Shown here: piece after piece, positions 20,621 through 21,057 of the stretch
How positions within the stretch are numbered: the first letter of the stretch is position 1
Layout of the letters: each line of letters begins with the position of its first letter
IMG/VR virus record: IMGVR_UViG_2695420624_000003
Coordinates: 1 to 27,032 of that record
DNA: 27,032 nt
DNA from: a virus
Lineage: Duplodnaviria; Heunggongvirae; Uroviricota; Caudoviricetes
Direction: 5' to 3' (one strand)
Notes under the pieces: model-generated
Seen by the model: the letters and a program-made list of their open reading frames with translations, nothing else
The model's database searches: none
Told to the model about the DNA's origin: nothing
Translations under genes and position numbers: made by a program

Positions 20621-20874
20621 TTGATTTTCCTTTTATGTATACGGGCTTAAAAGGATACCACCGAGCCTGAAGTGGTGAAAAGACAGGCACATAACAGCTA
20701 AGTATTTTCAACCAAAGAGAATCCTTAGCGTTGTGGTGAATGCGGCTCAGCGCACGCGGGTTAAGGTTGAGGCTGACAGTCGACCTTCTGTGGATACCCA
20801 CCCGCCTGGTGTGCAACCTTCGCCAGGCACCGGGAGGCACCCGGCACCACAACTTTATGCTGTGTGTAGTCCTG

Positions 20875-20920
20875 GCGGTACCAGCTTGTACCCTTGCTTC
20901 CGGCTGGTACCGTCCTTTTT
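20875..20920 (+). terminator. Perfect 10-bp stem-loop followed by a T-run (terminator-like)
   Basis: CGGTACCAGC ... GCTGGTACCG with a 16-nt loop, then TCCTTTTT, in a GC-rich non-coding stretch. Confidence 0.4.
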
Positions 20921-21057
20921 ACAAAACAGAGAAGAGCATCACCGGACGACGGGCTCATAACCCAATCCATCCGGGCGGCTGCCACCGCAGGTGTTCTTCT
21001 CTGTTTTGTGGAGAAACTAATCGGCCTTGCAGGGTCGATATGATGAGGAGCAGCAAA

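Follow-up and report, generated by a model that had tools for sequence, protein, structure and literature searches.

What does the GC-rich gap in front of yfdP encode in a prophage closely related to Shigella phage SfV? The gap (20640-21057) lies in IMG/VR virus record IMGVR_UViG_2695420624_000003, analysed here as one window of 27,032 nucleotides (nt), to which all positions refer unless another sequence is named; over 20600-21100 the window is 99.6% identical to SfV by sequence comparison. An original prediction, made from the letters alone, had noted a higher GC content between small open reading frames (ORFs) and had proposed a structured candidate small RNA (sRNA) or leader. The GC content is indeed 0.567 over 20700-20999, against 0.41-0.47 in the flanks, and the gap extends from an orf33/ymfJ-like ORF and a ymfI-like ORF to yfdP. 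It is a real non-coding RNA locus, composed not of the single structured unit that had been proposed but of three modules: a structured core, a DicF-like tail and a long hairpin. As far as sequence comparison can tell, the locus is new, a variant of the STnc100/PasD prophage sRNAs that scores below the Rfam cut-off and is fused to a DicF paralogue. Both suggested roles, sRNA and leader, found support in an Rfam match, in covariation and in the transcript ends of homologues. Three traits had been out of the reach of the prediction: the membership of the STnc100/PasD superfamily, the DicF-like tail and the setting in a repressor-controlled early-left operon.

The core was recognized by two covariance models. 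In a permissive scan, Rfam STnc100 (RF02076) matched 20708-20923 with 41.4 bits (E = 2.4e-7), covering model positions 1-206 of 206. A second model, R1, was built by us from a seed of 64 loci, out of more than 120 retrieved from IMG/VR by a scan with an invariant 19-mer; it scores 83.7 bits at the locus and also recovers canonical STnc100 members. Two subtypes are distinguished by helix P2, which reads CCCCC...GG(A)GGG in type A and GCGGC...GC(A)CGC in type B (SfV type). Type A comprises the bona fide Rfam STnc100 members and scores 57-90 bits with the Rfam model, as compared with 29-41 bits for the other B-type copies. Owing to the full-length STnc100 match, the R1 score and the flip of three P2 pairs between the subtypes, the core is very probably a divergent B-type branch of the STnc100/PasD superfamily. 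A filter-free R1 search of the whole window returned this element as the sole copy, and a second, nutR-like copy in the PR operon, which had been considered, was discarded. The next R1 match, at 22312-22423 (+) between yfdQ and yfdR, includes a GCCCCUGCGGGGGC hairpin and is probably due to chance (13.3 bits, E = 0.014).

The window core shares with STnc100, PasD1 and PasD2 the outer helix GGUG...CACC, a C/G-rich P2 hairpin, P4 and an invariant CCGGG-AGGCA-CCCGG adjoining the 3′ strand of P1, as well as a linker and an intrinsic terminator 3′ of the core and an occurrence in temperate enterobacterial phages; one covariance model describes both. The last of these motifs is the hairpin that the original prediction had singled out; it is found at 20830-20844 and turns out to be helix P5 of a bigger junction. 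The window core differs from STnc100 in its sub-cut-off score, in the three P2 pairs flipped from C-G to G-C, in an extra 5′ hairpin (P0) and in the lack of its own promoter. It also lies in the early-left operon downstream of cI and carries a DicF-like tail, whereas canonical members occupy the interval from Q to the lysis genes or follow stx2. A link between STnc100 and PasD has already been proposed (bioRxiv 10.64898/2026.05.13.724894). PasD1 and PasD2 have been seen by Northern blotting, lose their stability in the absence of Hfq and have targets identified by RIL-seq (PMC8550237); several studies have reported STnc100 without establishing a function.

Helices P1 to P5 were defined with RNAalifold and pair counts, and covariation was judged by pair counts, shuffles and the sliding of 3′ partners. 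Across 98 distinct homologues in a joint alignment of both types, 96.5% of the base-pair cells are paired (75.6% in shuffles), 22 of the 28 pairs show changes on both sides, and the covariation score is 0.548, whereas sliding of the 3′ partners gives 0.141 at most. For type B alone (SfV subtype), the corresponding values are 98.9% paired (82.4% shuffled), 16 of 28 pairs and a score of 0.42 against at most 0.079. P3, of only three base pairs (bp), is GCR/YGC in type A and GGG/CCC in SfV. The alignments were fitted to the model, which favours the structure, but neither the slide controls nor the flips from C-G to G-C in P2 (CG:65/GC:30, CG:61/GC:31 and CG:58/GC:30 in the joint alignment) are easily explained in any other way. 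Covariation across related prophages, which the original prediction had put forward as a check, thus appears as compensatory substitutions in the helices. The minimum free energy (MFE) fold of core plus terminator does not by itself reach significance (z = -1.88, equalled or surpassed by 8 of 200 shuffles) and was dropped as evidence; it is because of the Rfam match, R1 and the covariation, and not of thermodynamics alone, that the core is considered more than a chance structure.

The comparison also predicts a pseudoknot. The P4 loop is complementary to the 6-9 nt that directly follow the 5′ strand of P3. Over the 98 distinct members, the mean complementarity is 6.5 with a member's own loop and 3.9 (standard deviation 1.4) with the loops of other members; a score of at least 6 is reached in 73/98 members and in 10% of the controls, by more than 40 different sequence pairs. 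In phage phiES15 the pair is compensatory (AAGGCUG/CAGCCUU). The SfV segment AAGGUUG(A) can instead pair locally with UCGACCUU (20780-87), as it does in the MFE fold. The Rfam STnc100 consensus contains neither the pseudoknot nor helix P3, and the five-helix junction with its pseudoknot is likewise not part of the one published PasD/STnc100 fold examined; the consensus of the preprint that links the two was obtained with RNAalifold, which predicts no pseudoknots (bioRxiv 10.64898/2026.05.13.724894). The predicted pseudoknotted five-helix core is newly defined here. Directly 5′ of it stands P0, the pyrimidine-rich 3′ arm of which is a boxA-like motif. The P0 arms change jointly in other B-type members (AAGAGCAUU/AAUGCUCUU, AAGGACAUUU/AAGUGUCCUU and AUAAGAGUU/AACUCUUAU, read by eye from the flanks, with no formal count).

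The tail (20853-20920) consists of a single-stranded linker and an intrinsic terminator. The perfect 10-bp stem of the original prediction is present, CGGTACCAGC (20876-20885) with GCTGGTACCG (20903-20912), followed by TCC and TTTTT (20916-20920). The linker UGCUGUGUGUAGUC is nearly invariant among SfV, e14, ST64B and phiES15, whereas the neighbouring terminator stems differ by compensatory changes, found for example in ST64B. This conservation against a variable background is seed-like, and the linker is regarded as a putative seed. When the tail is aligned with K-12 DicF, the two have in common UUGGCGGUA(U/C)CAG...CCGCCCUUUUU, that is, UUGGCGGUAYCAG...CCGYCCUUUUU, and they differ in the 5′ part. 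The full alignment (A6) contains 32 invariant columns over five sequences, including GGCGGTA.CAG and CCG.CCTTTTTA. Because of these shared segments and of the adjacency of DicF and a B-type core in the Qin prophage, the tail can be assigned by sequence as a DicF paralogue with a different 5′ seed. The two are similar in size, have the same kind of terminator and occupy equivalent repressor-controlled early-left (dicB-type) operons. The window seed is UGCUGUGUGUAGUC, that of DicF UUUCUGGUGACGU. In SfV and e14 the core precedes the tail, whereas in Qin it follows DicF; in one further locus (L145) the UGCUGUGUGUAGUC variant occupies the DicF position, upstream of a core. Since the 5′ seed differs, ftsZ, xylR and pykA would not be expected as targets. 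A comparison by RNAduplex with the starts of division and cell-wall genes was uninformative, as the known DicF-ftsZ pairing itself fell below background. The U-tract terminator would be compatible with Hfq binding.

Two copies of the B-type core are present in Escherichia coli K-12, neither of them marked as RNA in RefSeq. The first, in e14 (L008 3576-3770; 66.7 bits), is annotated as the "gene" ymfH, the coding sequence of which is placed exactly over the core and the DicF-like tail. Relative to SfV it lacks one nt in the loop region of P5 and has A in place of G in the 3′ arm of that helix, and its score is lower; ymfH is probably not a protein gene. The second is found in the dicF-dicB spacer of Qin (NC_000913 1,649,451-1,649,584; L231 2952-3085), where nothing is annotated; it belongs to type B (68.6 bits), the flanks GUGAAUUUUGUGAUG.../...CAUCACAAAAUUCAU lengthen its P1 to about 20 bp, and its P5 contains a compensatory G-C to U-A change. 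This extended P1 was considered as the published RNase III site of DicF and rejected, as the literature puts that site upstream of dicF, at the 5′ side.

Transcript ends were taken from the MG1655 Term-seq data in supplementary files 1 and 3 of Adams et al. 2021 (PMC7815308). A transcript ending near 20920 had been anticipated, and in the 90% identical e14 copy a 3′ end lies at 1,201,195, the last U of the homologous terminator and the equivalent of window 20920; this evidence comes from the homologue. A second end, at 1,201,257, follows ...CACCACAACUUUA 5 nt past P1, corresponding to window 20857, directly 5′ of the linker seed. The third, at 1,201,423 (window 20690), is upstream of P0 and the most abundant of the three (109,099 and 285,136 reads). 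All three lie on the same strand as the element. In Qin, a 3′ end at 1,649,584 coincides with the last base of the covariance-model match, that is, the core plus 5 nt, 25 nt before dicB (PMC7815308). The internal ends at core plus 5 nt have low intrinsic-terminator and low Rho scores, and they fit processing or exonuclease arrest at a compact structure. The locus is thus transcribed in its close homologues.

Regarding the origin of the transcript, an operator-like palindrome, TTGCATATCTCGCAA, occurs in two identical copies at 19938 and 19960, 3′ of the cI terminator; the cI-cro operator region holds a related copy, TTGCTTATCACGCAA, at 19156. The two identical palindromes overlap a candidate rightward promoter (TTGCAT, a 17-nt spacer and TATCTT at 19983-88), and the segment 19903-19990 is probably the OL/PL of the prophage. 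Because of this overlap downstream of cI, we infer that the RNA locus belongs to the early-left (PL-type) operon, some 700 nt from its start.

The family is distributed differently according to type. A strong sigma-70 promoter accompanies 18/67 distinct type A members, its -10 element ending about 10 nt before P1, and a terminator follows within 90 nt in 45/67. The promoter-bearing cores lie between Q genes and holins, at the position of the late promoter PR′, and start about 3-6 nt after the promoter; by our own reading of the upstream proteins, the Q genes are lambda-like, 933W-like or of a third type. Type A is also found 75 nt after stx2B. Tandem arrays of three A-type copies with a period of about 255 nt, most units with their own terminator, are present at L075 4349-5000, L028 369-992 and L037 1722-2345, and up to six copies occur on one viral contig. 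Among type B cores, an adjacent sigma-70 promoter is seen in 1/31, and a terminator within 90 nt in only 9/31. The window core also lacks such a promoter, the nearest candidate being PL about 700 nt upstream, and it has the terminator described above. Type B cores are located downstream of S24-type repressor genes in diverse phages, often directly before a gene start (dicB, 25 nt downstream, in Qin; kil in phiES15).

The order of repressor gene, element and early-left genes is found in SfV, ST64B, sal3, phiES15, e14, Qin, L161, L100 and L012. ST64B, 118970_sal3 and phiES15 have sub-threshold STnc100 matches in this synteny, and another such match lies upstream of the ban operon in the P1-like phage RCS47. 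The B-type copies fall below the Rfam cut-off and are unmarked as RNA in all annotated records examined. Genomes that carry the exact SfV/Qin-type P2 motif belong to Escherichia, Shigella and Enterobacter, apart from two probably mis-binned metagenome-assembled genomes. In two IMG/VR contigs (L020 and L149), B-type cores are located outside an immunity region, in the interval that separates portal and terminase genes, and are bordered by inverted GAGAGCAUU/AAUGCUCUC repeats. Other prophage sRNAs were seen in related loci: IsrK in ST64B (L003 19-95; 64.3 bits) and IsrI beside STnc100 copies (L075 5220-5316; 60.2 bits).

The explanation that accounts best for these results is a composite non-coding RNA locus of core, DicF-paralogue tail and read-through, to which, taken as a whole, we give an even chance of being correct. 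Transcription would proceed from the putative repressor-controlled promoter downstream of cI through core, linker and terminator. Termination at about 20920, together with cleavage or 3′ trimming at about 20857, would yield the core and a DicF-like species of some 60 nt as two stable RNAs. That species may act in trans by pairing through UGCUGUGUGUAGUC, presumably with Hfq, and the core may be a nuclease-resistant scaffold or cap, or have a further function. Polymerases that read through would transcribe the 25-bp hairpin and continue into yfdP, xis and int. This mechanism is put forward tentatively, as somewhat closer to doubtful than to probable; a processed or terminated Hfq-type sRNA is the most likely function.

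Several observations weigh against this explanation. At the Rfam gathering threshold STnc100 is not reported at the locus, as 41.4 bits is below the curated 47-bit cut-off. The tail, with 15.9 bits at 20861-20915, misses the gathering threshold of 48 for DicF (RF00039), a model with which K-12 dicF scores 76.7 bits; the e14 and L145 tails likewise give no DicF match at the gathering threshold. The transcript ends come from the e14 and Qin homologues and not from this prophage. A search of the window for the reverse complement of the putative seed gave nothing above chance, and no target was identified. As B-type cores have no adjacent sigma-70 promoter (1/31), the RNA would depend on an upstream one, which should be repressed in lysogens, yet the K-12 3′ ends appear without induction. 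Finally, the conserved unit is the core rather than an sRNA-type 3′ end (terminator in 9/31), which argues for a function of the core itself, and an elaborate invariant junction with a pseudoknot is unusual for a plain base-pairing sRNA and suggests a specific partner.

Such a partner is central to the first alternative, in which the core is a distinct, widespread phage RNA domain with a five-helix junction, a loop-loop pseudoknot and invariant GGUGAAU and AGGCA. It would stand at the leaders of the two temperate-phage operons that must escape termination (type A at PR′ after three Q families, type B at PL after the repressor) and act on transcript fate via a conserved partner, be it RNA polymerase/Nus, a ribonuclease or another host protein, with two functional copies in K-12. 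We consider this account rather unlikely; if it held, the copy in the Qin dicF-dicB region could bear on dicB expression.

A second alternative, which we judge unlikely, would have the core act in cis after transcription, blocking 3′-to-5′ exonucleases or directing endonuclease cuts and, with the 25-bp hairpin, setting the stability or translation of orf33, yfdP, xis and int, with no targets in trans. An analogous RNase III hairpin lies in the lambda N leader. The Term-seq 3′ ends exactly 5 nt past P1 in two independent K-12 paralogues, with their low intrinsic-terminator and Rho scores, speak for this account. It is also in keeping with the frequent position of B-type cores right before gene starts and with a conserved long hairpin beside the yfdP ribosome-binding site. 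However, a simple hairpin would suffice for protection, and the invariant loops, the junction, the pseudoknot and the conserved linker are left unexplained. The A-type members, moreover, are stand-alone promoter-core-terminator genes, sometimes in tandem, which a trans-acting or protein-binding RNA fits better.

A third alternative is a cis-acting element of transcription elongation similar to put or nut, in which the nascent core, with or without the boxA-like motif, would modify RNA polymerase or recruit Nus factors, allowing read-through of the terminator at 20920, of later terminators and of Rho. We hold it to be quite improbable, in spite of a suggestive location: B-type cores follow the repressor gene and head the early-left operon, and with A-type cores at PR′ and B-type cores at PL the family occupies the two places where lambda needs antitermination. 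No N-like gene was recognized among the early-left ORFs annotated or scanned, in which no search aimed at N was made. Some read-through is implied by the co-regulation of ymfH, xisE and intE with ymfJ in K-12 (iModulon list, PMC12133099). A motif like UGCUCUUUC precedes many B-type cores, but it is the 3′ arm of the covarying hairpin P0 and is degenerate in SfV (GAAUCCUUAGCG); the boxA/nut reading of it was accordingly rejected and kept only as a weak lead. The A-type relatives form discrete sRNAs that stop at terminators of their own (45/67 with a terminator; PasD on Northern blots, PMC8550237), which an efficient antiterminator would not be expected to produce, and in e14 a 3′ end is found at the terminator immediately downstream of the core. 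In Qin the core is preceded by the DicF terminator, and a longer ydfABC-dicF-dicB species was not observed. The R1 search gave no second copy in the PR operon either.

A supposed sequence resemblance to the put RNAs in particular proved to be wrong, and identity with HK022 put or the HK639 put-like RNA was rejected, there being no similarity in motif, Rfam or covariance model in either genome. HK022 lacks the motif, R1 has no match in that genome or at the HK639 putL-like site, and Rfam STnc100 misses both put regions. What the put RNAs of HK022 and HK639 do share with the window element is that each is a structured RNA at the start of a phage operon that must pass terminators, with no N gene recognized. 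They differ in that put is about 70 nt long, consists of two stem-loops and is not followed by an efficient sRNA-producing terminator; HK639 has one of each, the put-like RNA at PL and, after Q, an A-type STnc100 element. Lambda 6S RNA and the StxS of Stx phages are short PR′-tR′ transcripts. The A-type relatives, which are made in lysogens, lie at that place, with a strong Q-holin promoter and a terminator about 170-190 nt later, whereas the window element is in the PL operon and not at PR′. If the core had a role in cis, in transcription or in RNA stability, it would represent a new control of the early-left operon for lambdoid phages without N and could explain the conservation of the late-promoter leader.

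Protein coding, by the YmfH-like ORF (+, 20733-20960) or an ORF on the minus strand (20761-20985), is hardly credible despite the ymfH annotation across the e14 copy in K-12 RefSeq and a match of the minus-strand ORF to phrog_3651 (E = 3e-49), since Pfam has no family for any overlapping ORF, 1-nt indels among SfV, e14 and ST64B break every frame, the longest stop-free stretch over the core is 31-52 amino acids in six frames in L142, L004 and L156 with the RNA structure kept, helix substitutions are compensatory, and the phrog family also overlaps a genuine gene, yfdP, in antisense orientation and probably gathers spurious ORF calls. The PHROG matches of the overlapping ORFs are to families of unknown function and were set aside as probable ORF-calling artefacts. 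The original prediction, which had suspected the ORF across the region to be an artefact, was right on this point: it is the N-terminal extension of yfdP here and ymfH in K-12. Codon-periodic substitution, named there as the pattern that would speak for coding, amounts to a non-significant excess in one phase, with 10 of the 19 variable core columns at the third codon position of the 20733 frame.

The composite RNA locus would replace a GC-rich gap and a K-12 "y-gene", ymfH, with a defined RNA. It would link three prophage RNAs that have mostly been treated apart, STnc100, PasD and DicF, of which only the first two had been connected earlier, and it offers a testable structure with exact helices and a pseudoknot. 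Its B-type members adjoin host-killing or host-remodelling genes (dicB, kil, xis/int). Even if the core were only an sRNA scaffold, the known set of prophage sRNAs of Shigella, E. coli and Salmonella would still grow. The coordinates of the locus and its neighbours are collected in Table 1.

Table 1. Features of the RNA locus and its surroundings in the 27,032-nt window.
Feature	Position	Strand	Details and basis
P0 hairpin	20697-20729	+	Arms GCUAAGUAUU (20697-20706) and GAAUCCUUAGC (20719-20729); read from sequence
Structured core, B-type, ~122 nt	20731-20852	+	Rfam STnc100, own covariance model R1, covariation
Helix P1	20731-38/20845-52		
Junction	20739-41		AAU
Helix P2	20742-46/20752-57		Bulged A20754
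Helix P3	20758-60/20801-03		
Helix P4	20804-11/20821-28		
Helix P5	20830-34/20840-44		
Predicted pseudoknot	20763-20820	+	AAGGUUG (20763-20769) with CAACCUU (20814-20820), P4 loop
Conserved single-stranded linker with putative seed	20853-20873	+	UGCUGUGUGUAGUC at 20858-20871
Intrinsic terminator	20874-20920	+	Stem 20874-85/20903-14, 17-nt loop, U-tract 20916-20920; sequence and MFE fold
~25-bp hairpin	20916-21014	+	Arms 20916-20940 and 20990-21014; starts in the terminator U-tract
yfdP (SfV orf32)	21058-21420	+	phrog_204, E = 1e-49; SfV annotation; ATG at 21058
cI	19191-19883	+	SfV annotation
Intrinsic terminator directly after cI	19903-19924		GGCCACC-GAAA-GGTGGC, then T5
orf33/ymfJ-like ORF	ends 20457	+	phrog_3195
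ymfI-like ORF	20375-20620	-	phrog_3311
tRNA-Thr gene	25589-25664		Marks the prophage end, adjoining the integrase

The third module, the long hairpin before yfdP, folds with -64.3 kcal/mol (z = -4.41, none of 200 shuffles as good). It is kept in e14 and ST64B with one compensatory change from G-C to A-U, and hairpin and yfdP together are about 96% identical in mEp460, cdtI and Stx2 phages. It may plausibly be an RNase III substrate or an element controlling the translation or stability of yfdP. At the same site in mEp460 (L230 2352-2492) lies a very divergent core (22 bits, E = 5e-5), with about 96% identity from the terminator onwards. As mEp460 diverges in the core and matches from the terminator on, a mosaic junction falls at about 20873, just after the core.

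In the orientation of the window, the SfV annotation gives the order cro (minus strand), operator region, cI, orf33, RNA locus, orf32 (YfdP), YfdQ, YfdR, further genes, xis and int, and yfdP, the first protein gene downstream of the RNA locus, closes the non-coding interval. On the upstream side, orf33 and the ymfI-like ORF are convergent and overlap by 83 nt (20375-20457), in the same way as ymfJ and ymfI of K-12. Between them and P0, a hairpin ACCACCGAGCCUGAAGUGGU (20658-20677, plus strand) is followed by the site equivalent to the e14 3′ end at window 20690; an RNA ending there would overlap the 5′ portion of the ymfI-like ORF in antisense. Read on the minus strand, the same hairpin is followed by TCCTTTT and is terminator-like.

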